NCBI GenBank assembly: GCA_905178155.1
Contig: CAJINV010000005.1
Coordinates: 2,668,054 to 2,732,053 of the forward strand
Reading direction: 5' to 3'
Origin: Amoebophrya sp. A120
Taxonomy: Eukaryota > Protista > Dinoflagellata
Length of the DNA stretch: 64,000 nt
In this document: piece by piece, positions 5,311-64,000 of the stretch
How positions within the stretch are numbered: position 1 is the stretch's first letter
Layout of the letters: every line of letters begins with the position of its first letter
Notes under the pieces: generated by a model
Databases searched by the model: none
What the model was told of the DNA's origin: nothing
What the model saw: the letters and a program-made list of their open reading frames with translations, nothing else
Made by a program: the position numbers and the translations under genes

Positions 5311-6648
5311 TTGTTAAACCTAGCTATTTTTATCGCTAGCAAATTCGGAATTAAGCAACTCTGTCCGACCATAGAACATGTGTACAGAAAGTCAGAGGCT
5401 GATGAAACGACGAAAACTCCTATTACGCAGTTTAGTGTGCGACCATCAAGCAGCACTTATTCGGCGACGTCGAACAATATCCACGTATCCCCTTCTACGA
5501 AGTCCTCCTCCTCCCGCCGCCCTGCACAAGATAAAGACTCATCCTCTGGTGGCACTTCCACAGCTACTAGACCACTTTCACCGCAGCGAAAGCTCCAAAA
5601 TGAAGATCCCTCGTCAACATCATCCCCCTTTCCCTTTCCCGCCGAAAAAAACTTTCCCCGGTCTCTCCCCACGGTATTCGACAGTGCGAGCGGTCACGAC
5701 TTTGCACCAACCGCAGCCTTATCAAATGCAAAAATGTCTGGGTCTGGAAGGATGCAACTTGTGATGCATGTTGCGCATCATACAAAAATCTGTGTTGCGT
5801 GACTTGCAAAAGGTGCTCATTTCTGGCCATGCTGAGGGGGCATTTCTCATGCAGAACAGGCATCACAAAGGGGCTGCAGATCCTGTGATGCTAGGCCCTG
5901 CATTCCAGACTTGGTGGAGCTTGGACAAACTGCATGACAAATCTCGGAATCTTCCAGACCCAGACACTTTTCCATTTGATAAGCCTTTTCAGAAAGCGAA
6001 GTCTTCCGGGAAAAACGGCCACTGAACAATTCGGAGTTGCTCGCACACTTCCGGAGGAGGAAACGAAAACAGACCGCAGACAAGAGCAAACCCTCGCTTT
6101 CATCGCAAGAACGTAGTGCTCCAGGGATAGAACGACCACCTCGCCTGGAAGAAGATGCTTCTACTAGAACGGAGCTACAGGTGGAGCAGGAAACGACCGG
6201 CGCAAGAAGTACAACCTATCGCGATGTTGATGACCACACACCCACCGCTAGCACGAGTGCAACCACCGAGTCCTCCTTTTCCGAGCAGGAAGTGTGGCTC
6301 CCGGACGGCCTTCCCCTCTGCCTCTTCTTTCACCGGGCGGATTCCTGCCTCTTTGAGTATCAAAGTGTAACCTGGGAAGAGTTCTTCGAAAGCATGGAGT
6401 CCTGTTCCGGGATGAGCCTGTTTCCGCATTTGCCCCTCGTCCTGTTGCGGTTCGGCTACACAGAGGAGGTGAAGACGGGGGGTGGTCGCGAAGAAGATGG
6501 GCGTGTGCTGGTAAAGGCAGAGAGCAGCAACAGCCGGAACAGAAGAACGGAAGAAAGCGCTGATGTGACAGCTCGTTCCGCGGGGTACTTTGATTCTAAC
6601 AAGTGGATGAGGTACATGGTGGAGGTTCTGAACATAGCCTTGGCATGA
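5311..6648 (+). CDS. Hypothetical protein interrupted by an introner; true start uncertain
   Basis: Removing 5720-5981 plus one AGCCT copy fuses ORF 5311 (..FAPTAA) in frame with FSESEVFREKRPLNNSELLAHF.. of ORF 6037-6648. Confidence 0.5.
5720..5981. mobile_element. Introner family A (262 bp), exonic
   Basis: TATCAAATGCAAAAATGTCTGGGTCTGGAAG ... CTTCCAGACCCAGACACTTTTCCATTTGATA. 5-bp direct repeat AGCCT (5715-5719, 5982-5986). Confidence 0.9.
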
Positions 6649-7146
6649 AGCATAGAGCCTGTCATCTAGATGTTCAATGCAGAGCAGACACGACACGGTC
6701 GGCGTTCTCGGCGAGCTTGAGTGACGTTGCCTCATCTTGCTTTAAAAATACTCGAAGTCGAACCATGGTGGCGGCCTTGGTGGTCGTTGTAGCTGAGTAC
6801 TCTAGTACTGTTGCCAGCAGCTACATTGCTGTCTCGATGATCCGACTAGGAAAAGGTGTGCTGTCGAATTATTCCTAGTAATTGAAGCAGCAATCCCGGC
6901 AAAGAAGAACCGCTCTCGTAGTTGCTGCGCTGCATTTCACGGGCAGGAAGTGGAGTCTCTTTTTCTTCTTGTTAGATAGTGTATCAAATATCACATGGAC
7001 GTAGTTAAGCTCCTTCAATTATCCGCGTGCCCATCTTTATGTATGGTGTTCTTCTGCTCCAGAGCCCATTAGTGCATCAGTAGGACACACAAAGCTCTTT
7101 AGTACTAGTACACACTCACATCAAGAGAGAAAAGCTATGGTGGACG

Positions 7147-8645
7147 ATGCGACTCAGCAATGAGAAGGAGCTCGTCCTGAAAAGTTACATATGCGAGGTT
7201 GCTTTTGCATCAATTTTCCAAGAAGCTTCACGAAATTGCAACTTCCACCTACTGAGTAGCCACGTTGAGAGGATGAAGAAGAAGAAGCATAAATGTCGCC
7301 CAGCGGGGGGTGAATACCCCCAGCAAAAACTTTTCCACGAATCTTCAAAACTATGTGTCGCTTCTTCGAAAACTGATCAACAAAATCGTAATCGATCTGA
7401 ATTATCTCCGTTGCAGAAGGGTCCGCTTGTTGTCGACCATCTTCATCGCGCCCCTGTGCCGCCCGCGACGGTGCTCATGGCGTCTCGCACGGCGGGTAAG
7501 GAATGCTGTAGTGTGGCTGCAGAAGAGGAACCAGAAATGCAGGGAGCACAGACAGATGATGTATGCGAAGTTGTTGTAGATGCTGCAACAGCTGCTGCAA
7601 CCACAACTCGTGCGCGCCTTGCAGATGCAAAGGAGTCGGGACAGGAGACGCGGTGCGATGCGCAAGCTGACCAAAAAATGCGGAAGCGGAACCTGGAACA
7701 AAAGCGATATTTTCTCTGTAGCGGCACTGTCAGGCTCCGTGCTGCAAAAGTAAAGAAAAAAGATATCTATCCAAAGCATTTTGTTCCACTTACCCATGAA
7801 TTTCTATTGTCCTCGCACGCAATCGCAAGTGCAACAACATGTCGCACGCCGCGCATAATCACAATCATTTCTGAATAAATGGCGCCAGCTTGTTCCTCTA
7901 AAATGCATTTTACTTGCATATGGACATCATCACGGCAGAAGTAGATGATGAAGGTGTTGTTACATGTGATGATGGTAATATAATTCATTTTCAGGCGGAG
8001 GTCAAGCGCAGCAAGACCGGTATCCTATCACCAGTGGTCTTTTTCCAGGACCTGTACCGACGCATCTTCCCATCAGGACAAGGGATTTTGAATAGAACTA
8101 GATTCTGTCCTGTCCGATTTTTACGTCGCCGCGAACAAGCTGAAGCTGGCACAAGCCACACTCTTGCAGGACGAGTGGGCCAAGAAGGTCATGCTCATGA
8201 CCTGATGGTGGAGCTGGTGCCACAACACGACGCGAGTACTACAACCACGACACGCGACGCACCCAGTCCGTCTCGTCGTACAACTTGCTGTACGCGTGAT
8301 CGCCGCGAGGAGCCCGAGGTGGGAAAAAGCGTACCAGTGGACTCCAAGAAGGTGCGTTCTATCATCAAGGACACGATGTTGAAGAAGAGAATCAAGAATA
8401 AGAAACAGCAAAACGGCAACTCCGCGGCGGCAGCGGCGAACACTGCTACCACGGCTTTCACGCTGCTCCTCGAGAGTGTCTGTGCCGTGTTTCGCCGCGT
8501 GATCTGGAAACCATCCGTGGCTGTGGTGATGTACTTATCCTTGCAGGTGCGAACGTCACAACCCCACCATCTGGTTGTATCCTGTGTGGAATCTTCGCCA
8601 TCAGCAGCTGCATCTGCATGCGATCACTTTGCAGTGTGCGAATAG
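7147..8645 (+). CDS. Hypothetical protein, at least 2 exons; start uncertain
   Basis: ORFs 7147 and 7914 join in frame through GTAAAG..TTTCAG intron 7750-7994 (..LRAAK|AEVKRSK..). No recognisable domain. Confidence 0.3.
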
Positions 8646-10726
8646 AAACATCAAGAGCGATCCTATTGATCTTGACCGACTTATTTGCAGAGATATTTCA
8701 TGGGGAAGTAAACATGTAATTGCATGCACCAGTACAAATTGCCTCAGGAGATCAGCTTGCTGAGGATCGTGTTACACATGATATCATAGTCATACGACCT
8801 TCTGGCTCTTTGTAGGCTCCTTAACCGAGGAGCAGTTCCTACCCGGCTCGCTCGCTTACCGACGCAGCATATCCGAGATGCTACGAGCCTCACGAAGCGA
8901 GGGCAGTAGTGCCATGCGACAAGAGGGGTCTGTACTTATGCGGGGGATCGCTTTCACTGGCGCGCAGGCGCACCTCTTCACCACAGGAACAAAGTCACCG
9001 CCTGCAAGGCTAGTCATGCTCCTAATGCTGTAAATTCAGGAATGCAAAAGGCGAAAACGCATCGAGACATAACGCATGATGTCCTGTTTCTGTTGTTATG
9101 CCTCTTCGTGAGTTTCCGCGTTCGGATCCGATTTGAAAAAAAAGCTTCACAGCTGCAGGTGCGACCTGTCATCTGTACTTATGTGCGCGGGTACTTCGTA
9201 AATCGTTTTGCACCGAACAGGCAGTACTAGAACAAGATAATTAGAAAATATTAGAGGCATTCATAATTATATATGTGCAGTTTAACGAGCAACGAAGACT
9301 CTTGTGTAATTTTCGAAGAGTATTTGCGTCTACCTCTACCCTTTGTAAGTGGAAACCTGTTTCTCGCTACTTCTGCCTTGCTACTCAAAACCGCGCGGTG
9401 GTCATCTACTTCGTGACCTGTTCCCATAATGGTCGGTGCGGTTGACTTTTCCTTGGCGCGCCGGTGGTTTCTTTTCGCCCTCGATGCTGCAGCTAGATCC
9501 CGATGGGGCTGTGAAAAAGTCGCGAGAGTTATTTCATACATCATGCGTTTTCTTTTATAACCACTGGGCTTCGGCGGGCTGCTCAATTTGTATTGCGGAA
9601 AATGCCACAAACCACAATCAACTATTTCTATCATAAAAAAATGCTGTGAAAAAATGCAGATTGAGTTTATGTACAAAAATGCATCCTCGTCCATAAATCC
9701 TGGCTTAGCTGCCTCGACGACGCTGTAGCCAGGCATTTATATCTCTAAGCCGCAGCAAAGCCATGCGCATGATGATGAAGTAGTTTGTAGTGTATCCACA
9801 CGCGGCTGAGCAGCGATGAGGTGCAGTGCGTATGAAGTTTGTAGGTAGAAGTGGAGTTTCGTGTGTCCTCACCGATGACCAAAGCTCACGGTCACGAAAA
9901 GGTCAGCTCAGATGACTACTGACAAGTTCAAGCTGTATTGAAGATTCGAAGACGTATGTACGTGTTGGTCTGATCTTGGCAGTCTTGCATGATTTCACCG
10001 AGCACCCTGAGCGGCCGCTAGACGACTACACGAGCGCTCCCTTTACACTGAAGGTGCACCACCTTGAGCACCTCCATGAAGGTTGTCAGAAACTACGCAA
10101 ATTGAGCCCGACACTCGTCCTGTAGCTATCCTTATCCAACCACGCATGATGTTGAAATGCTTGCAACTGGATCCAAGTGGGAGGAGGATTTTCGGAAGCT
10201 GTATGGTCTCATCAAGTGTCGAGTTTTCATGTGTTGCTGTTTTTGCAACAATTTGGCAGACAATTTGAATTTCTCACTTCACGTTCACCTGCATGACCCT
10301 TTCAAACAACGCGGCTGCTCTGCAATACAAATGGTCATAGGAAGTGTGCGTGTGTCTAGCCGCATTTCTCACATTCTTGACCTGAAATTCTATACTTGTG
10401 ATGGTTTTTCATGAACACGTAAGACAAAGATTGACATATTTATATAAAATTGAAATGCAAACTTAGAAATATAAAAATTTCCTGACGTTTATTCCCCTTT
10501 TCTTGCAGCAGAGTCACACAGACGCACGAACAGAAAGCGTATTTTTTTCCTTTACGCGCCGCATTGAAACGTCAGCCTGAGGAGCTACAATTGGTAACGT
10601 AACACTTGAGGAGGCCATAGAGTCGAGCCGTACATGATCAAATCAAAGGAGGGCCAACATCTGGTGGGCGAAAAGCAAACTACCCCCGCCGCGGCGCGGA
10701 CCACGGGTACGCTGGAAGGACACACG

Positions 10727-16958: not shown

Positions 16959-17468
16959 TGAGTCGGGACGGAAATCATCATCTCGGCTACCTTTGCCTAT
17001 CCACCAGGAGCTGACCAAAAGATCAGCACACTATGCCCCCGCACGCACATTTGATAACCATCTTATTGATCTTGAAAACAATACGGTTCTGTTTGGGTTG
17101 CAATAAAGATGAAAGTATCTGTAAGTTTGAGGTGTCTGTAAGTACAAGATGGATTGTCCCCGAGTGTTCTAACGTCCGGTCTTGTTAAGACGTGTCCTGT
17201 CGCTCCTCAGCGCGACTCTCTTGTCTTTCGTTCGCCCAGTCCCGACATCTCGTCAACATCTTCCCGTTGCGGATTTGCTCGTTCGTTGCGGCGTTGTGGA
17301 GAACATCGAACCCACGGGCAGCAGCATTGCGAAGTAAACGCATACGGAGGCGGGCTGGGGCAGACGCGGGCTGAGAGGATCACGCACTAAGCGGCCCGCA
17401 CGTGACAGAACCGCCCAGTACCACGCGGCCACCGGTATCGCGACAAAGGAATACAACCAGGGATCCAG

Positions 17469-18033
17469 AGCAGGCCGTCATAGTCCGAGCAACCAGGATA
17501 GGGAGCTTGGGGACTGCTACTGGTGATTTTATGCACTTTCCTTTGAGTCGCAGCGACGTAGTGCTTGTCACGCGACCACGCGAGGAAGCCCCTCAGACAG
17601 ACCACAACAATACCGCACACCACCGCGACAACGAGCAGTGCGACAAAAGAGTACGAGCAGGGATCCAAAGCAGGCCGACATAGTCCGGGTGACCGTGGCA
17701 AAGGAACCCGGGGCCTGCTTCTGGTGATTTTCCTCTGGGATCGCGACGGGCTGCTGTATTTGACGCACCCACACCAACAACACCTCCAAACAAACAGTAG
17801 CAACGAACCTTGACCAAGATCCGCCTGCGCCAGCCCCTCAGCGAAACCATCCATGAGCAACTTCCGCTGCAACTACTTACCGTTCCCCCAGACCCCAAGG
17901 AAACGATAAAAGGCCAGTACAGCTACGACGCGACGCGCCGAACAACACCGCACGACCACCAAACGCACCAGTGAGACCGCCAAGGCCGGTCGTCATAGTC
18001 CGGGCGCCCCTGGCAAGGACGCTCGGGACCAGC
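17469..18033 (+). ncRNA. Three copies of a bulged stem-loop RNA motif in the LINE 5' UTR (17469-17518, 17668-17720, 17985-18033)
   Basis: Lower stem, 8-nt bulge G(T/A)CATAGT, upper stem CCGRGY and a 14-15 nt cap. Stem sequences differ between copies but keep pairing. Confidence 0.55.
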
Positions 18034-18342
18034 GGGCAGCACTCCTGACGGCGGGTCGGCAGCCGTGGAAGAAGCAGGTGGCTTCATCGAGGTGCAAATA
18101 GCACGTTGCAACTAGCAAGCAAGACCCCCACTTACAAGATCCCAAAAAAGTAAAAGACGGCAAAAAGGGACATCTATACACATAGCCGCAAATAAAAGAC
18201 CCCGGAAAAAAGTAGAAGAGTGGCAAAGGGGCAAAATAAGAGAAAAGAACAGCCACCGGGGGTCTTGTATAAATATTTTTCTGGTTCTTAACCCTCGCCT
18301 CCGGGACGAGTCGCGGCACCGGTTTAGCCGGAAACCCCGCCC

Positions 18343-18570
18343 CGTCTGAAGACGAGCAGTAGTGTCGTTGCTCTTCAGACACGAGCGGAAGCCGATTTTT
18401 TCGAGACCGCAGCGGTGTCTTTTCCGGCTCCGGACGACCATGCCGTCGCGTCTGAAGACGAACAGTGGTGACGTTGCTCTCCAGACACGAGCGGAGACCG
18501 GCTTTTTCGAGTCCGCAGCGGCGCCTTTTCCGACTCCAGACGACCACACCGTCGCGTCTGAAGACGAACA
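18343..18570. repeat. 106-bp tandem repeat (~2.2 copies) in the LINE 5' UTR
   Basis: CGTCTGAAGACGA recurs at 18343, 18449 and 18555. Each full unit contains a GTCTGAAGA..TCTYCAGAC hairpin. Confidence 0.9.
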
Positions 18571-18749
18571 CTGTGCTTTTCAGGCTTGCAGCGCGGACAC
18601 TTTGCCCTTCTGGTGATAAAGCTGCAGTGTCCGGATTCCCATCCTGTTTTGCGCCTCGCAGGAGCAGACTCCACAAAGGACCCGGCTGATAGCTCTACCC
18701 CCCCGATCCTGTAGTATCGCCGCGCTAGCCGGCGCGATGCACCGACGAG

Positions 18750-19455
18750 ATGCCTGTTGTGATCCCGAGAAGGTGGCGACCGGCACTCACGCTTCTTGAC
18801 GAACTGGAGCAGAAAGGCGTCGTCAGTGCCCGAGAACTTGCTGAACACCGAGAAAACACGACGGAGACCCGCGCTGCGTTAACCAACCTGGCCCACGTAG
18901 CAGTGCTGCTCCGGTACCTCTATTGCCCGACGGTCATCCTTCGAAAGGAGTTAGACGAGCAAGGTAGCTGGCAAACCTACATCTGCCAGTACTACAGGAC
19001 CAGCGCAGTGCTGGAGCTCGCACACACGGCCCCGACTCCGCGTTTTACTGTGGGGGGACGAAAACTCCGCGACAGGCTCGCGGAATTGCTCGAGGAGCTG
19101 GACGAGAAGTGTGAGAGCTTCTTCATCCGCGTCGACCTGGTGCACGCCGCCTGGGCGGACATTCCGAAGCGGTTCGCCTGGGCGGACATTCCGAAGCGGT
19201 TCATCGTGTCGATCATCTACGATCCCTTCGGCGGTGATAACGACGCAGTGCGCCACCTGGTGGCGTCGTTAGCGCCACCTGGTGGAACAAGCAGAGAGGA
19301 AGGCGGCGGCCGCAGTGCGCGACCGCATCTTTGACGTCGAGGAAGAAAACAGGCAGCTCCGCGCGGAGAGCCAGCGCTTACGTTTCGAGAGCGACCTCCT
19401 GCGACACGTCGGGGACACTGGTGGCACGGCGAGACGGGTGGTGGACGAAGAGTAG
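18750..19455 (+). pseudogene. LINE upstream ORF (ORF0, ~218 aa reconstructed, C-terminal coiled coil), frameshifted
   Basis: ORF 18750 carries a 27-bp tandem duplication (19148-19201) and a 22-bp insertion (19264-19285). Removing the latter extends it to ..VRHLVEQAERKAAAAVRDRIFDVEEENRQLRAESQRLRFESDLL..DEE* (TAG 19453-19455). Confidence 0.65.
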
Positions 19456-19470
19456 GAACCGTAACTACGA

Positions 19471-22400
19471 ATGAAAGGTGGAGGAAAAGGAGGCGCCGGC
19501 GACGCCCCAGCATGGGGCCACACAACTGGCCAGCTCCAGCATTGGGGGCAGTATCCCGCGAACCAACAGTACAGACCGGTAGCGGCGCAGACGGGGATGA
19601 GAACAGAGCAAGGACAACCCCCGCAGCACTGGCAGAACGGGAACAGCAGCTGGCAACCTGCGCAACAGCCCTCCAACGCTGCTGTGGCCCAATTTGGGAC
19701 ACAGCTAAGCAGTGCAACAGCTGAACAGCAAGCCGGCAACCTGTGCGGCTTTGGGAGCGCGATGAGAGCGGGAAACAGCAGTAGTCTTGGTGGGGGCGGG
19801 GGAAGCAGCAGCAGCTTCGGCGACATGGCCACGACGGCGTATGCCAGCTCCCACGCTGGCCCTAGCCTGAGCGCGCATTTCAACAACCCGATCCCGCGCC
19901 AGCAGTACAGCGGCCCCCCAGGCGGGGGCATGACCGGCTTCGGGGGGATGGGGAGCTACCACGCTGCGAACGGGGCGGGGCCGCCAACCATTGCAGACCA
20001 CCTGCTCCTCCAAAACTTGCAACAGCAAAACAACCCAGCATACCACCAGCCCAGCAGCCCAGCCATACCTGTTCAACAACCACAGTTCCCTGCCGGAGGA
20101 CCAGCGCCTCCGCTTTTCGGCCTCCCGGTGCAACAAACGCTCTTCGGGTGCCCGCAGCAACACCATGCTCTCCCAGCGCAACAAACGTTCACCGCGGAGG
20201 AAGTCCAGCGACTCCTCGCGGCGCAGCAGCAACAACTCCAGCCAATGAGACCAAGCGCGCCCATGCCTGTCAACATAGGCGGGCCCATGTCACAGCTTGC
20301 ACAGTCAGGCGCCGACGCTTTGGGGGGTGCTGGAGGTGTTGTCCCCGCCCTCCAGCAAAACCACAAAGACATCTGCCAGCTCCTGGGCCAGCTGCAGGGC
20401 AGGGAGATAGCAGTGCCGCTGATCACCAGGAACGCGCTGACCGGGGAGGGGACTGACGTTGAACACCTGTTGACATTGTCGGAGCAGCTGCGGGAAGTCC
20501 GCAAGGCAGTAGAAGATCTTGCCAAGGCACGCGACGAAGCCGCACAGAACAGCACTGACACGTGCCTGCGGCAAGTTGTGCAGCAGAGCCACCCACAGTG
20601 CCCGGACGAACACCAGCAGCAGCAGCAGCGCCAGCAAGCTGCTGTACGAGCGTCCACGATCCCGACTTGTGCCCAACACCTGCCTACGCAGACGCAGCCG
20701 GCGAAAGCGCAAACAGGCGCGGAGGCACTTGCACCACAGCGGCCGGTCGTAGAACAGCAGAACCCCACCCCCAGGCAACATCCCGCGCTCGGACACCCCC
20801 CGCTCCCGCCGAGCCATCTTGCGCAGCCGATCCCGAATTGGCCCGCCACCGTAGAGCAACGTCCCACCCATCCCCGGACGGACACGTACTCACCGTGCGT
20901 CCGTGATGGAGCAGTCGCACTGGCCGCGGACGCCGGGAACTTCCTCTGGGAGCTGATCACGCAGCGCTGGGTGCTGGTGTTGTTTGGAGCAGTGCTGCTT
21001 GTGGCGCTCGGCATTGCGAACACGCAAGTGCACAGCCCGGGAGCCCTGGAGGTCGGTCCGAGCCCCTTCGCCGAAGTCGCCGCGATCCCCAACACCGCCT
21101 TGCTGCTACAGGAAGGAAACGCCGCTGCTTTTCGAACAATAAACACGGGCCGCGCGACGAAGGCGCGACGCGGTCTTGTGCCGCAAGATGAAGATGATGA
21201 TCAAAATATTTTCACCTTTCCCAACGGGGAACCGCTCGACCTCCGCATCGAGCAGGCAAGGCGGCAGCGCCAGGCGTGCCGCCGGTGGTTGTCGGACCGG
21301 CACGACATAGAGCTGTCGCTGCCGATGGTAGTTCTAGGGGTGGCGCTCCTCTTCGCGGGGATAGCGGTGTGCCACAGCGCAGTGAGCACCGCCCTCAGCA
21401 CGGCAGCGGACGCCTTGCGCAATGCGGCGGTGCGCAGGTACGGGGCGCTAGGGGCGAGGAAGGCGGGGGCGCACGAAAGCAAACCGCAACCGCAGCCCGG
21501 AGCACACCAAGGCAGAACGCCGGGAACACACCTAGACCAGGCGCAGCTGCAGGCACGCGCCCTGCCGCTGGGGAGCGACACACCAAGCGCCCAAAACGGG
21601 GCGGCACCACACCCCCCCGAACCGCCGCTAGCAGCACAGCCGGCGGGAACGAGCGGCGCGGGAGGTCAGGGCGGTGGAGAAGGGGAAAAAACACGAACCG
21701 GGCCCGGCGAGTCCGGGCGCGGCCCGACGGACGCGAGCCTACGCGAGCAGCTAGGCGCAGCACACGACAGACAGGTCGCACAAGTGCGGCGACGCACAAT
21801 CCGCCCGCCCCCAGGTCTAGCGCCAACGCCACAGGCGAAGACATTCGCAGGATTTCCACCCTAACGCAAAAAGTTTCGGAAAATCCACATAGCGCAAAAA
21901 CAAAATCCAAAAAAAAGCCAAAAAAAATTTTTTGAATTTTTTTGCTTCCCCGACGGTCTGGCCTATGTGAGGCATTTCCCGAGTCTGTTCTCGCCCCTGT
22001 TTGTCAGAGGAGGGCCGGGCGCAGGTGTCGCATACTTGCCCGCTTGGGTGGTCCACATCTCTTGGCCTCCACTGCTGGCGATGAGAACCCAGAGTGGCAA
22101 ACCCGTGTGGGGTTGCGCCTTCTTCTGTCGGGGAGCAGAGGCGCCCTTGTGGCGCATTGCCGCCGTAGAAGATTTTTCTTTGGGTTTGGCAAGGAAAAAT
22201 CGCAGAAAAAATTTGAAAAAAGTCCGGGAAAAATCAAGAGGCGCGCAAAAAAAATTTGAAAAAAATTCTAGAAAGTGGCCAATTTGCAAAAACCAATGGG
22301 ATTTTGCTAATGTGGCCGATTTTCCGAAATTTTTTTTGGCCATTTTTCGCACCTCTTGAAATTTTATCCGGCCAAATTCAAATTTTTTTTGGGCAAATCG

Positions 22401-25400
22401 AAATTTTTTTAAAATTTTTCTTGGCCACACGCAAAGGAAATTCTGCACTTCAATTCGAACGCATCCGAGCGCCCGCGTTGTCGAGCAGCCACGTCCATCA
22501 TGCCTGCGCGCCGCCTCCCGCGCGCTCCTGAGGCATACCGAGCCCGTGTGGCGTGGCGCCTTTGTGTTTTGCTTCATCCCATTGCGAAGCACCGAAGGCA
22601 GCGACCCAAATCCCGCCAGCCTTCTTGTGCAGCCTGCAGGACGGGCCCCAACCCGCCCCCGGCCCAAGAGCCACCCCGCTACCCTTCTCGGAAATTTTAA
22701 AAAATTTCAGGAAAAAAGTGGACTTTTCGGCCCAAAAGCGTTAGGGGCAAAATCCGGCAAAAAGACAGCTCCGAACACGCAAGAAAGAGGCGCTGCGAGT
22801 AGCAGTAACAGTAGTAGGAGCGGGGCACAAGACGCGGGCTCCCTGGCCCCCGCGTCACAGGAGCCACCGAGCCAGACCTGCGCACAGGAGTGCGAGATCG
22901 TGCCGGTGAACGAAGGACGCGGTCGACCACGTCAGCGACCTGTGCGTCCTGGCAGACGTGAAGGATACGTTGAAGAAAAACGCAAACGAAAGGCGCTTCA
23001 AGTGCACGGCGCCGGGGTGTGACTGGGCGAGCGGCTACCAGCACCGGGTGGACTCGTTTGGCAAGCACCTAGCGAAAGCTCACCCCGAGTGCACGCATTT
23101 CCTGATGCCGGAAATCAACCGGCAGAAGGAGATCACGCGCTACCAGAAACACCCGGCCCCGAAAAAGCCCCAACCAGAGGCAAGCCAGTACGACGCAAAC
23201 CACAGGCGTCCACTGGTGCAGGGCGCGACGCGCGTTCTGCAGTGGAACGCGCAGTCGCTCAACGCGAGCAACGAAGAAGCAGCAGCGGCAAAGGGCGCCG
23301 CTTTGAGGGAGACGCTAGAATTCCAAGATGCGACGCTCTGCCATCTCCAGGAAATCTGGTGCGACGCGGAGTACCTGAAGTCGTTCGTAGATCGGCACCT
23401 TCCGGAGTGGGAGGTAGTAGATGTCTTCCCGTCGGACGGAGTAGGAGGTGGCGCCGCCACGATAAAGCACGAGAGCCTGCGGGGCGCCATGCGGTCGAAC
23501 GAGGGCTGCAGGGTAACGGTCACCTCCGGAAGGAATGTCGCAGCAACGTGCGCGACAATCTTCGACTGCGAAACCGGAGAAGAGTGGGCAGTGTCCGCGG
23601 GAGTGTACACGCCCCCGGGGATCCCCGCGCTCCCGTACGTAGAGGCCCCGGCGAACGTAGAAGTAGCAATCTCCTGGGATGCGAACCACACCCAGGAGCC
23701 AAGAACCAGCGCAGTGCAGCACTGGGCAAGGGCGGAGGCGTTGGAGTTCTACACCGCGGCGGCGGCAACGCGGCCGTGCTCCCAAACGTCGCCAGATGTA
23801 GTCCTGCTCTCAGCAGGCCTGCACACCGCGGCGTCCGAGGTCGATCCGACCGGACCCAATGTTGTCCTCATAGGGGGGGACCACGCAGCACTGGTGTTCG
23901 ACCTGATCCGCCCGGCGACAAAAGAGCACCAAGCAAAGGGCAAGACCTCCGTAGCGGTGGTAAAGGAGCACGAAGAAAGGGCGGCAAAAAAGGACGGAAA
24001 CGCGACAAAAGCAGCGGGGACAAAGGACGACCCAAAAGCACCGAAAGAGACCCCCGAAGGTGGGGTGAAGCTGACAGGCAGTCAGAAAAGGGCGTTGCGA
24101 AAAGAAAAGCTCCAGCGGATCCGGGAGCTGCGCGCGGCCAAACACAGGCAAGCACGCGCCGCCGCCGAGGGGACAACGACGCCGCCAGCAAAGCAAGACC
24201 GACTCCGCTCGCTACCCGGCCTAGGGGCGGTGCTGTGCCTAGCGTCCGGCGCAGTAGCGGCACTGTGCGCAACAGCAACACAGGACACAGGCCTTCCGGG
24301 GGCCGTGGAGAGCACCAGCACAGAGAAGGGGACGAAGGCGGAGGTCGCGCGAGAGGCGAACAGCACCGGCGCCGCACAAGAGGGGGCGCCCCTACCGGAA
24401 GACCCGACGCGACTACCCTGGGACCCCGCGCTGTGGCGCGACCCCGCGCCGGTCGTGCAAAGACGCACACGACTGAACCTGAAGCGGGCGGACTGGACGT
24501 TATACCGGGAAGACCTCGGGCGCTTCCTAGCACAAAACGCACCCCCAGCAACCGTCGAGGGGAAGGTGGAGTACGTGAGGGCCGCGATCTTCGAAGCAGC
24601 ACGCAGAAGCATTCCGCGCACAAACGTCGCGCGGAAAAGACACAAGCGCCCAAGGGGGTCGGCGCCCGGCGTCGGCACGGAGCTAGACCTCGCCTTGAGA
24701 GAGCGAGGGGAGTGCATGCGCAGGCTAGCACTCTGCCCGCCGGGACAGAAGCTGTTGTGGCGCACCGCGCTACGGCAAGCCACAAAGAGGGTCGCGCAGG
24801 CGGAGTACAGCAGGCAGGACGAACGCTTCGCGGACAAACTCGCGGAAGCAGAACAGAGCACAAGCGGCGCCTTCAAGCTCTTGCGCGAGCTGGAGGGGCG
24901 GCCCCCACCGAAACAGCACACCGGTGCGCTGCGCTACGCGGGGGGCTACGCGTTTAAGAAGCTCGCGTGTGTACCCGCGCACTTCTACGGCTCAAACCCA
25001 GCTCTCGACCCAGCATCAGAGCAAGGGGCGTGGGCAACGTACAGCAGCACCCTCGCGGCAGAGCTCGCACCGGGCACGGCGATGCGGCTGGACCTAGACG
25101 ACGTGGAGTTCGCTCGACGGGGACAAAAACCAGCGGGGGCCGCGGGGCCGGACGACATCCTGGGCGGGCGCGATGTTGAAGAACTTCACACAGGACGGGA
25201 AGAAGCTCTTGCGGGACACGTTCTCACAGGGCATCACGGAAGGCGTCACGCCCGAAGCGTTGCGCCTGGAAGTGTGCGCGCCGGTGCCAAAACCCGGACG
25301 CCCCGGGGACTTACCCAAGTCGCTAAGGCCGGTAGCACTAACGTCCTGTCTCGCAAAAGTGTGGGAGCGCGCGGCGCTCCGGAGGCTGCGAGCAGTGTTC

Positions 25401-27601: not shown

Positions 27602-27793
27602 CACACAACAGAATCAAAACACAAGACAACTCTCTGACCATCAGAAACCCGCTGGCGCTGTAACAAATTAGTGATCCACCCTGCAGAAGCAACCAGACGC
27701 AGGCCATGGCGGTGATTTTACATTCGCGAAGTTCTATCGGACGTTGAAGGAGTACGAGCCTGCTGCTATGCTCCTGCACCACGCGCGAAATTT

Positions 27794-32837: not shown

Positions 32838-33478
32838 TCTTGGTAAAGATGGTGTAGGGTTGCTACGTCTAACTTAAGTATCCCGGCTGGTAGAACCGCT
32901 GACCGAAACTTTTAGTGCGTGATGAAGGACAAACAGCCGAGACAAACACGACCGCTCCGCGCTGGAAGTAGCGATCGCAAAGGAGGTGGAAGCAAACCTT
33001 GATTTGCTTTCGCTTTTGTCAATATTTGAGCGTGCACAGCAGATTCCCCATCGGATATGAATTCTTCGCAGGAGCATCTTGTGATCTACATGCTGCCCTT
33101 GATGAATGTTTCATGCCAGAACAAAACATGTAACATAAGCACTCGCCGACCTGACAAAGATATATCGTAATTGTAGGCGTATTAAAACTTCTTGTTGAAG
33201 TCTTTGTGACAGTCGATCGTCTGTCACTGTTCCTGTTGCTGTTCAGTAGTTTTGAATAAAGTGTCCTTCGACGAGGAGTAGCTACAGGCACTTACTTTAC
33301 AAGAATGAAACAACGAGCGCATGAGAATGAGAGGACAGTACAGAGCGAGCGCGTATGTCTGTTTTTCTAGCACCCACCACCTGCAATTAACGTAAACGTA
33401 CTTATCTTGAAAATTATTGGATTACCTGGTGCCCGAAAAAGGATCCGAAGAAAGTAAAAATTGTAAATACCAAAGATC

Positions 33479-38175: not shown

Positions 38176-39483
38176 ATGTCGAGCTCCTCTTCCTCCTCCG
38201 GCGGCAAAAAAGTGCCGCGCAGGGGGCGGCAGCGGCGGTCTCAAATCAACAAACCGCCCGAGCAGCGCTGCTTGAATTGCGATGAGGTCATCCCCGACCC
38301 GGATGCCTGTGCCCTGTACCGGGGCCGCCCCTGCTGTGTCCGCTGCTGGCAGCGCATCGAGAAACTCGCGGAACGCAACGACCCGGCGTTGCTCAAGTTG
38401 TCCGCGAACTTGCAGCAGACCGGAATGTTCAAGAATCACCAGGGTGGTCAACAACACGCCGGACCCTCGCGGTACTACAGCAGTCTGGTCGTGAGAGCCC
38501 CTCTGTACCTGGGTGGCACGTACTTTCTCTTCGCGACGGTTTTCCGCAACGCCTCAGACGCCTTCCAGCTCTTTATCCTCCGTGCCTACCTGGACTTGTC
38601 GGATTACTGGCTCGACAAGGGGAGCTGGATCCGCTTCCTCGGAATCGACGACTTTCGGAAGTGGTGGCTTGACATCCCCCCTCCGCCCAGCAACGAAAGA
38701 ATCTACCGCGAGTTAACCGGTGAAGAACCGCCCTGGTCCCCGTACTTCAATAGCGCCGACGGGCGGGCGGTTACTGGAGAGCAAGAAGAAGGGGCTGGTC
38801 CGAGCAGTAGTACAACGTCGCCGGACGAGTACAGCAGCAACAGTACCAGCATCGGAACACAATTCCCACCGGCGTATCCACGTGCAGTGTAAAATGTTTT
38901 TGCGTGGTCTGTCGTGCTCGCGCTCAACGCAGCTGCTGTTCGACGATTTTTGTGTTACTAATTTGCGTCAGAATTATTGTTTGTTGTCATGATCTGATCA
39001 TCTCGGCGCCTGGGTCTGGTGGCATGCTGTTTAATAGTACTTCTATCTAAATTCGAGACGAACCGACCTTCGCAAAACACGCAAAAACTCTTTTCCACCC
39101 TCCATATTCAAAACGCCATTCCAAACTTGAACCTCGGGGGTGGCGGACGGTACCCGTACGAGACCAACACTGGTCCGAAGTACTACCCGCCTGGCAACGC
39201 GCCGGCGAACATTTTCGACCTGCTCCCCAAGATGCCGCCGCCGCTGACGCCGCCGGGAATGAAGGCCGAAGCGAACAACGACGCCGCAGGACTGCTCAAC
39301 ACGGGAGATGCAACTGCAAATGCCGCTTCTGCAAAGGGCGTGGTGTCTTCGTTTGGGAGTTACGTATCGGGTTTGCTGAGTGGGGACATCACTGTGGAAG
39401 ACACGCTGTCGCCCGTTTTGGATCAGGTGAAGGAGTTTATGTCAGGCTTCTCCGGAACATCCCGAAAAATGATGTACGCGTGA
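38176..39483 (+). CDS. Hypothetical protein with a CxxC..CxxC (LIM-like zinc) motif and a hydrophobic segment, probably 2 exons
   Basis: CLNCDEVIPDPDACALYRGRPCCVRCW. ORFs 38176 and 39019 share a frame and join across ~38874-39110. Confidence 0.55.
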
Positions 39484-44616: not shown

Positions 44617-47600
44617 ATGGTGGTCCTCTCCGCGGCAATATTGTCGAAAAAGAAGACCCTGCTTGCCAGGCAATTCGTCGACATGACCAGACTACGGGTC
44701 GACGGCTTGCTGTCGGCCTTCCCAAAATTAGTCGACTCAGGTACAGCGACCTTCTGGAGATATATGAACATGAACTTTTCATTTTCTTTTGTTCCTCACT
44801 CTTTTCGGTTGTTTAATCCCCCACTGCTTCTGCTGCATTTTCGAAAACAATAGGTCGAAGACTTTCCTCTCGAAGTTCTTCTGATGTGTGGAGACATTTG
44901 TGAATCTTTGTTTTTTCAAATAAATTATGATCATCCATGCATACCTAAAACAGAGAAGGGCAAGGACCATACGTACATCGAGACGGAGTCCGTTCGGTAC
45001 GTTTACCAGCCCATGGAGAAGCTGTTTCTCCTTCTGATCACGAACAAAACCTCCAACATTCTCGAAGACATCGAGACCCTGCGACTCCTGGCAAAAACCG
45101 TGCAGGACGGGTGCAAAAACGTGGCGGTCAGCGAAGAAAGCGTGTTGCAGAATGCTTTCGACATCATCTTCGCCTTCGATGAAGTTATTTCCTTCGGGTA
45201 CTATTTATCATACAGTTACAGACAGGATTCTGAAAACCTTTGAACAAGAAGATCAAGATGATACAACTGATGCGACTCGTGCATGTAGTACAAGGTCATG
45301 GCGCGGGGACAGAGTCCCCGCGCTGCGACCTTGCAGCGAAGAAGAGCCGCACGCGGTGGCTTTTCTTGTCCATGATGCAGAAGGTTTTTCTGTCCTGTGA
45401 GACAGAAAGGGGTGGGCCTGGCGCCCGTGGAGCCGGCGCCCTCAGTAGGGTAAGCGTGCGCCCCGTGGGCTCCGGCCCTATAGGCCATGGCCCGCCCGCC
45501 GGCGCTGTAGGCCACGGCCCGCACATAGGCTACGGCCCGCCATAGGCTACGCCCCGTAGGCTGCGGCCCGTCCATTGGCTGCGACTGGTAGCTCGGCAGG
45601 CTACGGCGCGGCCCCGTAGGCCCTTCGTTCTCCTGTGCCCCGTTGGCGGCCATACAGGAAAGGACCCACCCCGGCGGGGCTGGCGTGCGTACAGGAAAAG
45701 CAAGAGCCGACGCTTCTCGGGCTCCCTCGTCTTTTTGTTTTCTCCTCCCTGTGCCCCGTTGGCGGCCATACAGGAAAGGACCCTCCCCGGCGGGGCTTGT
45801 GAGTGTGGGCGCGCACAGGAAAACAACTGATGCGACTCGTGCATGTAGTATCTGCCATGCAGGACGAGCCAATGTATCAAATGCAAAAATGTCTGGGTCT
45901 GGAATGTTGCCGGCTTTGTCATGCATATTCTGCATGACCCAGGATGTCTGTAATGCACGACCTAGCATCACAGATTTTTGGCGGGCTTCCTGATGCCTAC
46001 TCCGCATGACAAATGCCCTCCCCGCGTAGCACAAACTAGCCTCCTTCTGCTGGTCATGCAATACAGATTTTTTTAGAATCCAAAGTTAGCATCACAAGTT
46101 CCAACCTTCCAGACCCAGACACTTTTACACTTGATACAATGCCAAAGAGAGAAACTCACATCTCATCTCGCTGACCCTTCCTCAGGTACCGGGAGAGCGT
46201 CACTTTGTCGCAGATCAAGCAGTATTTGGAGATGGAATCAAACGATGAAATATCCAGAAAAAAACACCCATCCACATCCAATTTGTCATGCAAAACATAC
46301 AGAAAGTTCTGTGTTTGTCATGCAAAAGATGGATGTGGATGGGTTTTTTTCTGTGGATATGAAAAGCTGGCGCAACGAATCGAACAGAGCAAGATAAACG
46401 AGGCGAAAGAGCTCGCAAAGAAGAAAGCGCTGGAGCTCAGCCCGGACAGGAAAGGCTTCGGCTCAGCCAACATGCCAAAACCCGTGGAAAACGAAATTCA
46501 CAGTATAGCATCATGGAATTAATAAATGATGTTTTGTATCTCGAAGCCCTTGATTTGCGTTTGCGTCTTCTCGATTGTAGTTTTTGTGATACGCAATCAC
46601 AAGATTCTTGGATGCTGCCAAGAAGCTTGATGATCTTCTACTTGTCATTTACAAACCTGAACTTTCTTTTGCCAACTTCTCGTCAGCGCAATTGGAGCAG
46701 ATGAAGCCACCAGTGCAGGAGGTGGAGACAAATTTCGCTGCCGCTGCCGCCGCGGCAACACCAGGAGCGACGAACGCCATTCAGGCAAGCCTGCCAAAAC
46801 GAGGTACTAGAAAAGAACTTAACAATTCGAAAAACTACCTGGATTTCATCAATTTCATCTGTTGAGTCACGTGCTCATTTGATGGCCTGTATTTTGGTTG
46901 TCTGGTGTTGCGTCGTGTGTCCAGCGTAAGAAAACGAAAAGCGTATGAATGCGTTAATAAAGTTCTTATTGCGCCGCAAAAAAATCTAGGTATGCAGCTC
47001 GGCCGAAAAAAGCCAGCACCCGCGGCAGACGCCTTCTCAACAGCAATGGCAACGAACGAGGTACCTGCGCAAGTCGCGGGAAATATGCCAGTTGCACCAG
47101 CAGGCGGGGCGGCAGCTGCGATGGCACCAGGTACACTGATCCCTCAGTACTTGATTTTATTGTGCGTGTTTACCCCCGTGTATAGGTAGATTCGCCTTGC
47201 TTAAGACAAGCACGTGAAAGCAAAACTGCTCGGCAAAAAAATGCATAAAAATTCCAGTTGAGCCACCAAGAGCGCCAGTAAACCCACTCCAAGAGCCAGT
47301 TTCCATTCTTGTGGAAGAAACAGTAGAAGCTGCGCTTGGGGCAGAAGGCGGCCTGCTCGGCGATTTGACGCTGCAAGGAAAGTTCGAGGTACAGGTTTTG
47401 TCTTGCAAAAAAAAATTTTCATGTCGTATCCAAAACTACGATTTATTTGACTTTCATCAAGCGATTGCGTAAGAACTTTCATTCAAGTACAACTGGATAG
47501 CATCTTCGCACCTCTTGCTCTTCGCAGCAAAACAATATTGTCTCCTCAACACTCAGATAACCGTCCACGACGACGCTAAGGCGGACCTTGCGTCCTTTAA

Positions 47601-53894: not shown

Positions 53895-55055
53895 TTAAAT
53901 GCAAGAGGCGAATTTGGACCTAAAAAGTGCCTAAAGACATCACGCAGCTGTTTGGACATGATATTAGAATCACTAGGATGTTAGCTTGTGCTCTGTAGAG
54001 CCTGTTCTGAAAGAACCGGCAACTGTTCATGTTCAACTTCAACAGACGATCCCGCATTACCATTGGAAGATCCAGCTGTGAAGAACGAATTGCAGGCAAA
54101 CGCGCGGCCAATAGAATTAGTTGAGATTGAGCAGGGTTCGGGCTCCTAGAATTGGTTCTCAAAGATCTTTGCTGTTTTACTACTGCTCAACGCGGTGGTT
54201 TATACTTGATTTTTGTCTTTGAAATTTTGCACCCGTAAGTACAATGGTGAGATCCTCCCGATCTTCGCACACAGTTTCAGGGTCCTCAACATCACGACCA
54301 GCCGCAAATTATCGAATCAAAATAACATCCGTTCTTTTTTTAAAATCTCTTGGGCTTGTGTCATGTGGCTGTATTTCTATTTGATCCTTGTTTCTATCCA
54401 AATTGGTAGCTCGTCGAAATCGATTCATTAGATTCTCCTCTACGTTTTCAAGTTCCACAGAAGTAGATTGATCCGAGATACAAAAATGAAGTTGAAAACC
54501 GAAAACGATATAACAGGCACGAGCGCGACGGTATTAGGTTCTGTAGTTCCAAGAACATGATCATGAAGATTTAGTGAGATCTTAGATGTGTCATCGTCAT
54601 GTATGAGCCCAAATAGTATCGTCCAACACCAACTAAACCGGGCCTGGAGTTGTACGACGTTGCCGTCGCTTGCAACAAGCACGACAGGTACGACGACGAG
54701 GACGACCACGACGACGCTCATACTACAAGAATTTGGTATCTTGACCGCTACTGACCATTCCAAATCTTCTATGCGACATTGCCTCATGTACATTCATGAA
54801 TGCAGCGACAGCCACGAGCACGCGAAAAGCTCCCATGCGCCGCCGTCTACCGGGGAACACGAAGAACAACCGCCGACACACGACACGACAGCTGCGTCCC
54901 GATTGTACTACATGCTCCCTCGTGCAGTACGAGAATTAGGGGAAATTGCACTTCTACCTTGGAACAATTCAGAACCACACCACTGTGACTTCATCACCTA
55001 CATTTTGCAGTAAACGACCACTTCTGCGACGAGGACCGTCTACCATCGCGTCACC

Positions 55056-61000: not shown

Positions 61001-64000
61001 ACCATTTGTTCCTGCAGCTGCACCAATCGCAGTCGCTGGTGGGTTCTGCATTGCAGCTCCCGGATTTTGGGAATTCCAACGCGGGGTCAATGTTTTACAA
61101 CGGAATAAATACGCCGCAGAATCAACAGCAGTACGTGCGGGACGCGTATGGAAATCTCGTTCTCGTGAACGTCGCTGCAGACCTGCACCAAGATCATGTG
61201 AATAACGGTCTGGGAACTACTACTTCCAAGAAAAACGCCGCGCTCTCCTACTCCGGGCTGGAAATTGAGCACGTGACCGCGATTGACGAGCTTCTGAAGC
61301 AAGACTACGCACTCCAATGGCCGCCGGAAGATTTTCTGGGCAATAGTTCCGCCGGGGAACAAGGCAACGCGGAAGACCACGAAAACCCGAACAACACGAA
61401 CAACAACGAGAACCCGTTTGTTCCCCGCACCGGCACGTTTGGGGACCGGTTGCGGAAGAATTACCAGCAGTTGCTGGAGTTGAGCAGGAACAGCAACAAC
61501 GCGAATTCGAACAACATTATGGACAACAACATTTTGAACCAGAAACCCTCGAATTTGACCTTGATTCTCTTCTACATCTGCAGCATCAACCGGCTGTCCA
61601 GTGTGAGCAAAAAGGCGATGTTTGTTTTGTTGCAGATGATGAACCGGAATTCCTCCGTCGTGGCGGAAACTCTGGAACTCTGCCCCATGCTGAAGGAACT
61701 ACTCAGTTACGGCTTGGCGCACAATCTCTTCGAGCTCAACGCCGCGGAGGAGATCGAAAACGTGTCCGGACAGCAGGAGTTCAGCAGGTATTTGGTGGAA
61801 AAGCTGTCGACAAACAACTTAGCGTTGGATTTCCTGGAGGAGTGCAAACAGCACTCCGACGCGGGCTTCGCGATGCAGGAGGCGTATTCAGTTTCCACCG
61901 GTTTTTCCATTCTCGCATCTCTCGAGCAGCAGCTGAACCTGCACGACGACAAAGCGGTGGAGTCCGTGGATATGCTGCTCGCACGGCTCTTAGCGGTGAA
62001 CTCCTTGAAGAGTGTATCGGCGGTGGGCGGGGGAGGAGGTGGTGTACAACTGGGTGGATCAAGATCTACTTCCAACACGACGAGTTCTATGGGCAATAAA
62101 CCACTTTTCTTCGCCCGGGAACGGTCGATCCGGACGGGTTACCTACAGGATTCCACCCTCACCGCGGAGAACTTCGGGTTTGAAACCGCGGGCGACGAGG
62201 AGATTTTCCAGCTGCTCCAGGACCAATACAAGGAAGAAGTCGTCCCCTTCGACCAGGCCGCGCTCGCCGCGGGCAGGACGCCGGGGGTGCTACCCGGCTC
62301 CGTTGCGGACGTGAACTTCGCGATGGGAGGAGGTGGAAGTGGAACTACATCAAACTACAAAAACAGCACGCAAAACTCCTCGTCGTCCGCGGGCAATATG
62401 CTGAACTACAACACGTCGCAGAACCATTTGGGGTCCTCCTTTCTGCAAAACACAATGGCAGACGTCTCCGGGCCCTACCGGTCCGTGCGCCAGATGCAAA
62501 CCCCCCAGCACGTCGGGCCGAACGGCGAACTTTTAAATCTCGCCGGCGCTCAATCCAACCCGTATCCTGTGCAAAAGTATCGTACTCGTACAAATGCAAG
62601 TCTTGCATTACAAATCTTGTTTCCAAGGCAAATCTGCATTACAAATTTTATTTCTCATGCTGGGGAAATTTGTAATGCATTTATACGATTACGATACTTT
62701 TGCACTGCATAACCCGGGCAGTCAGCCCAACATCGGGTACAAGCCCTACTTGCCGGCGAACTCCACCGCCATGCCGGAGTTGACGAAAATACAGAGAATC
62801 ATCCTCCACCGATTCCAGCAGGACCAGCCGACCAAGCTCTTCCCCCATGCGTACCGCGTGCCCGCGTTGAACAGAACACCTCTGCGGGAGCTGGTTCTCC
62901 TCGTTTTGAAAGAAGCGCTCGCAGTGTTACCGAAAGACCAGGACCACGCGGAAGCCCCGGCCAGCGACAAGCAGAACGAGAAGATCCGCTTGGCGATCGC
63001 GGTGTTAGGTTTGGCGAAAAACTACCAGGAGGAGCACATCGATTTGGACCCAGCGAGACAGGGCGGGACCTACTTGACGAACAGTTGCTTCCAGGGCTTG
63101 TACTTCCTGGCGGAGAACTACCCGGACAACCTGGACTCAGTTTCTGATTTGTACCAACGGTTGGATGAGGTCGCGCTCGCGCCGGTCGTGATATCATCAA
63201 CCTCTTCAGGCGATGTAATTGGTGGAGGACGTAGCAGGACCACTGCGGGACAGCAACATCATCATGGCGCGATCCCACATTCCCGGTCGAAGTCTACCGC
63301 CGGTTCGCAGCACGAACCTCATAGTTCCGCCCGGTCAAGCGGGCGGAGGCACTCCGGAGACAGAACCGCACTGCAATCCGGAGGAGCCCAGCGCTCCGTT
63401 TCCGCCACTTCCGGGGCGGGTGGCGCTAACAAAAGCCGATCGCCCCGACTGTCCTCCGCGTCGCGCTCCGGGTCACCCAGACAGCCGCATCTTTCGCCGC
63501 GGTTGCAGGCTGCGGGCAGAGCAGGAGGACATTCTAGGAGTAAAACGACCAGACAGGAGAAGCGCACGAAGATCCACCCGTCCTGCCTCCCGTCGCGGGC
63601 GCAGCTGAGACAGTACAGCGACTTATCGATCGAAAGGAACCACAAAGAGTATTTACTCGTTCTGGAATTGATTCTCCAGTGCGTCCGGATTGCGGAGTTC
63701 CGCGAGGTGGGGTTGAGACTGCTCTCGACCAGCTTCAAATCTAGATACCGTGTGTTAGACTCCATCGCGGACAGCCGGACGGAGTCCTTCCGCTACCGCC
63801 CCGCCTTTCTGCACCGAATCCTTCTCTCCCAGGCAGTGACGCTGTTCAAACTGCAAACCTTGGAATTGTCTCTCGTCCACAAGCTCGCCGCGGAGTTCCG
63901 GACTAAAATGCTGCTCGGGATGAGAACGACGAACAGCGGAATCAATAGTAGGAAGAAGCTGTTGCACAAACAGTTCGGAATGGTGCAGGAGCACGAAGAC
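55056..64000 (+). CDS. Very large alpha-helical protein, probably Nup205/Nup188-family nucleoporin; multi-exon, runs off the window end
   Basis: Exons link through GTAY..AG introns and two introners, and the frame stays open from 62717 onward. N-terminal ELSQKLRLHQHECCFLV..LFYNEQQHAACVLLDL resembles the Nup205/192 N-terminal pattern (family call tentative). Confidence 0.55.
58900..59178. mobile_element. Introner family F (279 bp), exonic
   Basis: TATCCTGAGTAAAAACGTACCCACACCAGAGT and ACTCTGGCGTGGGTACGTTTTTACTCAGGATA. Direct repeat TCCCT. Removal gives TSEESLDSM. Confidence 0.93.
62563..62711. mobile_element. Introner family C (149 bp), exonic, inverted relative to the 34445 and 36587 copies
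   Basis: TATCCTGTGCAAAAGTATC..GATACTTTTGCACTGCATA. Direct repeat ACCCG. Removal gives QSNPGSQPNIG. Confidence 0.93.

Follow-up and report, generated by a model that had tools for sequence, protein, structure and literature searches.

Introners with TAT..ATA ends in Amoebophrya sp. A120: a uniform 5-bp duplication, a shared internal motif and a cut in RNA that is likely counted from the element ends

Introduction

How can elements that resemble short transposons and offer no conventional splice sites lie within coding frames and still be missing from the mRNA? This question is raised by a stretch of 64,000 nt from Amoebophrya sp. A120 (contig CAJINV010000005.1; hereafter the window), in which ten elements starting with TAT and ending with ATA make up 2218 nt in total. 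The original prediction, made from the sequence alone, regarded them as introners spread by one transposase type and removed from RNA by a structure- or terminus-defined mechanism. The analysis described here revealed that the elements are absent from transcripts together with 5 nt, that they share a 5-bp duplication and an internal motif across families, and that their removal is likely counted from the element ends. The core finding was already known, because PMC7789003 describes A120 introners with TAT-starting inverted repeats, direct repeats of 3-5 nt, likeness to MITEs (miniature inverted-repeat transposable elements), non-canonical borders and no clear splice signature, and one of the A120 families in PMC12130899 is given a 5-bp target-site duplication (TSD) and TA/TA termini. 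Thus, the statement that introners with inverted plus direct repeats have been described in Amoebophrya is correct, and the novelty implied for this grammar is not supported.

Anatomy of the ten young elements

The ten TAT..ATA elements are located as follows:

5720-5981, family A, 262 nt, repeat AGCCT, four strict motif copies; open frame joined on the + strand with 136 codons upstream and 220 downstream (+ strand call weak; one minus-strand register would give GC-AG)
32125-32430, family B, 306 nt, repeat AGCGG; within a mitochondrial carrier gene (PF00153)
34445-34599, family C, 155 nt, repeat TCCTC
34645-34955, family B, 311 nt; repeat matching at 4/5 positions, position 1 differing (synonymous)
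35218-35452, family D, 235 nt; repeat matching at 4/5 positions, the upstream base at position 3 being kept in the mRNA
36587-36736, family C, 150 nt, repeat GCCGA
45875-46136, family A, 262 nt, repeat CAATG; within an ordinary intron
46251-46359, family E, 109 nt, repeat TGAAA
58900-59178, family F, 279 nt, repeat TCCCT
62563-62711, family C in reversed orientation, 149 nt, repeat ACCCG

All ten elements were found at the predicted starts with TAT first and ATA last (10/10). The 5-bp repeat claimed for each of them was perfect in eight, the copies at 34645 and 35218 reaching only 4/5. A scan for terminal inverted repeats (TIRs) plus a perfect 5-bp repeat, performed blind to the termini, recovered eight elements, all with TAT (8/8), compared to five matches in total in 20 shuffled windows. 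BLAST grouping yielded six families, in agreement with the predicted minimum. The description of the TIRs as largely unrelated overlooked the common internal motif and an A-run that most families share around positions 11-15. According to predicted folds, 18-29 bases pair at the ends of the ten young copies versus 0-2 in 12 GT-AG introns.

In contigs of the DNA run X5, 74-189 contigs with unrelated flanks ended exactly at the element termini. Since, in addition, all six families recurred in a larger sample of 143 loci, the elements are repeated in the genome. They are MITE-like, i.e. short, with TIRs and a TSD, without coding capacity and present in many copies; their classification as MITE-like introners of Amoebophrya is supported by anatomy, copy number and the transcripts lacking them. 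An Rfam search of the window gave zero matches.

Absence of the elements from transcripts

Two features of the window are important for the transcript data:

33467-36880, + strand, host gene region with four elements (34445, 34645, 35218, 36587), AI-2E transporter domain (PF01594)
45198-46185, + strand, GT-AG intron of 988 nt enclosing element 45875, supported by an RNA joint

Assembled contigs of the runs X1-X3 were used as transcripts. To judge by the absence of GT-AG introns from them, by the lack of cover over 54061-54724 and by a poly(A) end, these contigs behave as RNA. A window exon was 100% identical to P0001, a protein whose source ascribes it to Amoebophrya sp. A120. Deletion of the four elements of the host gene, each with one repeat, resulted in a frame of 847 codons that aligned to this A120 protein without gaps over 809 residues, and deletion of 58900 and 62563 joined a second frame of 1646 codons. 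The assumption that removal of an element plus one repeat restores the frame was thereby confirmed.

A single RNA contig was shorter by 716 nt across 34445, 34645 and 35218, which corresponds to the three elements plus three times 5 nt. At 46251, an RNA joint in the runs X1 and X3 dropped 114 nt (109+5), and the same contig also dropped eight GT-AG introns at equal depth; at 62563, a joint in run X1 dropped 154 nt (149+5). Altogether, 15 RNA joints were detected between 44101 and 64000, 13 of them GT-AG introns and two of them these elements, both lost as element plus 5 nt. For 32125 and 36587, RNA pieces ending at 32119, just upstream of the repeat, and at 36580, respectively, document the upstream side only. 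At 35218, an RNA piece restarts at 35456, and P0001 has Lys, not Glu. No joint was seen at 58900, where cover was low. Within the window, removal from RNA thus refers to six copies, three by a joint (46251, 62563 and the decayed copy 38874 described below) and three by summed loss (34445, 34645 and 35218). The predicted removal with one repeat and without GT-AG is borne out by spliced contigs, by lengths of element plus 5 nt and by the gapless match to P0001. An intron of the form N-TAT...ATA-N with one added codon, which is suggested by published border counts and lies beyond the frame test, was excluded in the window by the RNA lengths and P0001.

The raw reads of run X9 covered no window exon, only relatives of the elements. 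Among them, 254 RNA reads from a family B relative located elsewhere (aligned span 32125-32232) halted at 32232. The sequence at this stop presumably resembles a template-switch adapter and suggests an RNA end inside the element.

Duplication and insertion in a larger sample

The 143 loci (L001-L143) originated from one metagenome assembly and were fetched with the family A pattern, so family A is over-represented. They look like DNA of a lineage related to A120, because the one orthologue compared shared 85% identity with A120 across the query length. The loci contained 262 candidates, of which 225 showed a duplication of at least 5 bp (lengths above 10 bp were outside the scan range). TAT was the start in 222 of the 225, and the duplication was exactly 5 bp in 220 of these 222 and 6 bp in none. 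The remaining 37 candidates were 4-bp palindromes, mostly inside such elements. The target-site bases were near background composition, and exonic insertions occurred in both orientations (95 versus 103); strand calling of copies was imperfect, a looser version misassigning 34645 and a stricter one leaving five window copies uncalled.

The coding frames were in accordance with this anatomy. From 369 elements used, 306 had flanks and 129 had both flanks independently coding on one strand; 123 of the 129 require that 5 (mod 3) bases remain between the flanks. In L051, element removal restored a Polysacc_synt_2-like protein, whose identity with a homologue from outside was 56% across 254 residues. 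About a dozen elements, some of them a few bases apart, are located inside one 290-codon frame of this locus (L051:2948-7022).

In the exonic copies of the loci and the window, the duplication started unevenly at the three codon positions (42, 67 and 89; p 0.0002). With a cut after position 4 of the repeat, phase 0 is therefore the commonest (89/198). With regard to the idea that the mRNA might draw on both repeat copies, an early excess at third codon positions weakened in the larger set (26/47), and mismatch rates were 0.047 in exonic and 0.049 in non-coding copies. Co-evolution of the arms within copies was not supported: own arms were barely better matched than the arms of other copies, one family excepted. 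Private changes in copies of the loci from A/T to G/C were slightly above the reverse (0.050 versus 0.044 per site).

Longer copies of 457-972 nt were also detected (L062:5792-6763, L041:3862-4492, L040:571-1051, L064:8961-9456 and L021:5314-5770), in which termini and 5-bp repeat are intact and the inner sequence is unrelated and without a long open reading frame (ORF). An element of 323 nt in L037 (L037:2011-2333) represents a different family type, which has TTG ends, an inverted repeat perfect over 20 nt and a 5-bp repeat but lacks the motif.

Decayed copies and the position of the cut

The ten elements are real, but the set was not complete. An eleventh copy had been missed and a twelfth is probable:

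38874-39110, + strand, eleventh, decayed copy; TAT at 38875, ATA ending at 39106; in RNA contigs from X1 and X2, 38873 is joined to 39111
8578-8783, + strand, candidate twelfth, decayed copy; deletion together with 5 nt opens a coding-like frame

In perfect-repeat copies the cut is invisible because the repeats allow a mean of 6.5 equivalent registers. By contrast, the joint at 38874-39110, whose flanking 5-mers match at 0/5 positions, permits one register only, i.e. one base, TAT...ATA and four bases, and leaves the frame continuous. That this region is a relic of an element is indicated by the likeness of its arms, reached in 0/5000 shuffles, and by two motif copies with one mismatch each; its sequence was confirmed by the DNA run X5. 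An alternative reading as a GT-CA intron would leave the excised piece unchanged.

Copies with mismatched repeats agree with this register. At 35218, the cut must not lie before position 3, and in L017 the upstream base at position 1 is kept. In L051, a conserved Met-Arg-Gly-Gly-Glu is obtained only with cuts 1-4; among its homologues, Met is present at -2 in 71/100, and Arg is the commonest residue at -1 with 19. Four more copies, whose repeats match at 1-2/5 positions and whose ends are intact, kept the frame, and in one further copy the frame was lost. Due to the single register at 38874, the agreeing mismatched copies and the low-match copies that keep the frame, matching repeats are not necessary, and the element ends are the likely reference points for the cut. 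Of the two kinds of removal proposed originally, the terminus-defined one is thus supported, the 38874 copy being joined in RNA with repeats matching at 0/5 positions, while the requirement for a stable fold is doubtful, given the poor fold of this copy (z -0.4 versus shuffles).

Some single observations belong to this context. In the element at L017:282-591, ATA is separated from the repeat by three additional bases; the frame is still kept, with one extra residue compared to the A120 orthologue. The candidate 8578-8783 would start with GT like 38874, as G precedes TAT in both decayed window copies; such a bias is not seen in young copies. Derivation of a register from L009 failed because its homologues P0002-P0004 do not reach across the junctions.

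GT-AG registers and published splice-site diversity

Ends of the U2 type, GT (or GC)...AG, were possible in 0/10 elements on the + strand, and 38874 would be GT..CA. For the repeats TCCTC and TCCCT, the claim that no register has a G in any terminal dinucleotide was correct. The wording "never GT-AG" is accordingly true for the ten on this strand and fails as a general rule: 15/198 exonic copies and 26/578 orientations do have a GT-AG register. In the exonic copies these registers arise by chance.

The ordinary introns between 44741 and 58800 follow a narrow pattern. All 13 RNA-joined ones start with GTA, 12/13 with GTA(C/T), and 12/13 end with CAG; a clear branch-point consensus was not found in them. 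The diversity of the published A120 borders is likely a mapping effect among about 6.5 equivalent cuts. A model choosing the most GT-AG- or CT-AC-like of the equivalent registers, the best of seven models tried, reproduced how the borders of the largest A120 family are distributed in print: compared to the published values, it gave 0.28 versus 0.27 for GT, 0.28 versus 0.27 for AG, 0.71 versus 0.69 for NT starts and 0.73 versus 0.68 for AN ends (147 exonic copies). Its top 14 pairs include 8/9 of the "predominant" A120 pairs of Table S4. If the diversity originates from mapping, the published border tables are uninformative on the true cut.

A motif shared by the families

GCAT(G/C/T)ACA is present in every window element, with 32 strict copies in 2218 nt versus four in the 61782 nt outside. 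Because the motif had been discovered in window elements, it was tested on families absent from the window, where 51/53 copies possessed it compared to 65/1060 shuffles. The extended form is (A/T)GCAT(G/C/T)ACARRT, frequently located 30-50 nt from an end. In 10/12 families, a spacing of 31-33 bp between motifs of the same orientation was among the top spacings, which could also have been kept by common ancestry of the families. The strict motif was missing in 4/222 intact copies.

The motif did not show a bias for the sense strand (271 versus 306, p 0.16) and was more conserved than the element interior in exonic and non-coding copies alike (0.58 versus 0.55 of the interior rate). The missing strand bias, the occurrence of both insert orientations and the equal conservation fit a DNA-binding protein acting at transposition, and the motif is probably a transposase site. 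A role as a simple strand-specific branch point was excluded, as the strict sense form is absent in 43/198 and the reverse form in 38/198 exonic copies; 46251 is joined in RNA though only the reverse form is present. No literature linking the motif to introners was found; the logos of PMC7789003 (Fig. 3, S19-S25), which possibly show part of it, lay outside this search.

Assignment to a transposon class

One transposase type, as originally assumed, has become likelier through the uniform 5-bp duplication and the common motif, although no transposase was found and the assumption thus stays an inference. The suggested membership in IS3EU was not supported, because the duplication is 5 bp (220/222) and not 6 bp as usual for IS3EU (PMC10045372). 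IS3EU/GingerRoot elements share the TA..TA ends with the elements studied here and differ from them by their usual 6-bp duplication. The TNT..AYA ends of IS481EU, described for Trichomonas, would fit TAT..ATA, but its duplications are about 4, 15 or 25 bp. Ginger2/TDD matches in its duplication of 4 or 5 bp (5 bp in TDD-4/5), but Ginger2 has TGT ends (PMC2836005), in contrast to TAT in 222/225 copies. By the features compared (PMC10045372, PMC6839031, PMC2836005), the elements resemble what an integrase-type transposase would produce, but they fit none of IS3EU/GingerRoot, IS481EU and Ginger2/TDD.

The search for the mobiliser included 62 of 82 listed long ORFs from the loci, none of which matched any family of transposases or integrases. 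In L070 and L054, long candidates with TAT..ATA ends turned out to be host DNA lying between short copies. In viral contigs, the family A end pattern was not matched, and the motif pair gave 13 matches that seem to be due to chance, with no element structure in the three that were inspected.

Proposed mechanism and alternative explanations

As a whole, the preferred reading, that one transposase spread the elements by binding the motif and that a relaxed host spliceosome removes them by a cut of the form N-TAT...ATA-NNNN, is close to evenly balanced, with a slight lean towards doubt. Its steps differ in strength. Very probably, a cut-and-paste transposase would insert the elements with a 5-bp stagger and without target preference, as the anatomy suggests. 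It is fairly likely that this enzyme would recognise the TAT ends and the internal GCAT(G/C/T)ACA(A/G) sites, often 31-33 bp or about three helical turns apart; recognition by ends and motif would leave the remainder of the inverted repeat free to drift between families. That the mRNA lacks the element plus 5 nt was observed in six window copies and would very probably hold in general, leaving the protein unchanged. The cut would probably be measured from the ends as N-TAT...ATA-NNNN and not by repeat matching. Finally, N-TAT might replace the local donor GTA(C/T), and the paired arms might bring the far end near without the need for AG, a step for which chances appear even. A relaxed spliceosome is favoured, with confidence evenly divided, since N-TAT resembles the local donor and the ends of young copies pair strongly. 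PMC7789003 reports nearly all spliceosome proteins to be present and U1 small nuclear RNA to be undetected. The A25 elements described there begin with TTA plus two purines, which may likewise resemble a donor with altered first base.

Several points weigh against this reading. The 3' end lacks a fixed base and G is not enriched beside the ends, which departs far from the rules of the spliceosome. A branch-point consensus was not evident, CTRAC being absent from the sense strand of 9/10 elements. The fixed cut relies on one direct case and three agreeing copies, one register being assumed for all, and the 38874-39110 piece folds no better than its shuffles. Ends and motif are not better kept in exonic than in the 37 non-coding copies, so that selection for splicing was not detected on them, and the missing strand bias leaves room for a role of the motif in RNA because the motif is nearly palindromic. 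The transcript contigs derive from one sample whose RNA nature is only a guess, none of the runs being recorded as RNA. A transposase or an autonomous element was found neither in the window nor in the 143 loci, and in PMC7789003 no putative transposase was detected in A120.

It is possible, though rather doubtful, that with the same transposon origin and fixed cut a separate nuclease recognising ends or hairpins and a ligase remove the elements, as proposed for euglenids. The lack of a conserved splice-site base at either end would be compatible with such enzymes, as would the pairing of 18-29 end bases in all ten young copies (0-2 in the 12 GT-AG introns) and the release of euglenid TIR introns as circles without a lariat (PMC11282704). 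On the other hand, N-TAT equals the local donor at positions 2-4, and the decayed and weakly folded 38874 copy is still removed. Unlikely is the idea that the motif, on DNA or nascent RNA, is the site of a host protein by which the element is tagged for removal, instead of or besides serving the transposase. The occurrence of the motif in nearly all copies of all families, its persistence in decayed remnants and its near-palindromic form, which could act in either orientation, would suit such a protein. This assumption contrasts with the absence of extra exonic conservation (a comparison of low power, with only 37 non-coding copies), with the RNA-joined 38874 copy having only one-mismatch versions and with the four of 222 intact copies that lack the strict motif.

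That the elements are retained in RNA and that the joints are jumps of reverse transcriptase between the 5-bp repeats over a hairpin is hardly credible. Short repeats next to strong hairpins are the usual setting of such artefacts and all RNA evidence is based on cDNA, but at 38874 the joint lacks a repeat and the fold is weak, and where a gene carries as many as a dozen elements, its conserved frame is kept only once these are removed. Elimination of the elements from the DNA of some nuclei, which the RNA would merely reflect, is very improbable as well. TA-starting ends and one retained repeat recall the internal eliminated sequences of ciliates. Yet, among the joints listed, the X5 DNA contigs run from exon into element without differences (rare joints at the DNA level could escape, as repeats swamp the table), and a germline-soma split is not known in this parasite. 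Extending the spliceosome-based reading, it can tentatively be proposed, with doubt prevailing, that A120 and its sister lineage possess a transposon group outside the named superfamilies, defined by TAT ends, a 5-bp stagger and a single 9-bp binding motif spaced at three helical turns, plus a second splicing rule, N-TAT...ATA-NNNN, which would count bases from the element ends, would need no splice-site base, would make exon insertion in either orientation silent and, under mapping ambiguity, would account for the thousands of diverse non-canonical sites published for this genome.

Relation to known systems

The elements match the A120 introners of PMC7789003 and PMC12130899 in TAT start, A-run, inverted plus direct repeats, non-canonical borders and MITE likeness, and their lengths of 109, 150, 235, 262, 279 and 306-311 nt fall among the family lengths in the 58 A120 rows of PMC12130899. 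While the published introners have repeats of 3-5 nt at variable position, the repeat here has a uniform length of 5 bp, the cut appears to be fixed and an internal motif is common. A120 family 38 (PMC12130899, supplementary file 8) is about 808 nt long with Copia/Gypsy-like ORFs, in contrast to 109-330 nt without such an ORF here. The nonconventional introns of euglenids are similar with respect to TIR-paired ends, TSD-like repeats, absence of GT-AG and a proposed MITE origin (PMC11282704), although the pairing in A120 is predicted and weak in 38874. Their end motifs CAG/CTG at +4-6 and -8 to -6 differ from TAT..ATA, and circular products are a euglenid feature. Fritillaria, with transposon-derived non-GT-AG introns and a changed spliceosome, offers a precedent for a relaxed spliceosome (PMC13326754, PMC11282704), but its introns keep the preferred sites AG-AC and AG-AT, whereas in the A120 elements three of the four bases at the termini seem to be free. 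Introners of Micromonas and Aureococcus are likewise non-autonomous TIR transposons with a TSD turned introns; these carry or co-opt canonical splice sites, which the random duplication in A120 does not supply. The available part of PMC11453091 added nothing on the mechanism. The accessible portions of the literature did not yield the uniform 5-bp duplication across families, the common motif and the distance between its copies, a cut that is likely fixed or the explanation of the diversity by mapping.

According to PMC7789003, about two thirds of the A120 introns are non-canonical and their splicing is unexplained. If the single cut rule is true, it would turn apparently patternless splice sites into one testable substrate, allow the junctions of lariats or circles to be predicted exactly and show annotators where about 30,000 intron borders belong. 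The common motif could serve as bait for the missing transposase or binding protein. Scarless removal from any exon position would also explain the scale of invasion, with as many as a dozen copies inside a single frame of 290 codons.

Other features of the window

Between 3578 and 4817, the window harbors a distinct inverted-repeat element of 1240 nt, whose ends are TCAGG and not TAT; its flanks match over 6 nt, and TTAGCA is repeated in its interior. The GC-rich region 17400-27700 contains long ORFs as well as reverse transcriptase and RNase H at 25486-27660, and is likely a retroelement without long terminal repeats (non-LTR type).

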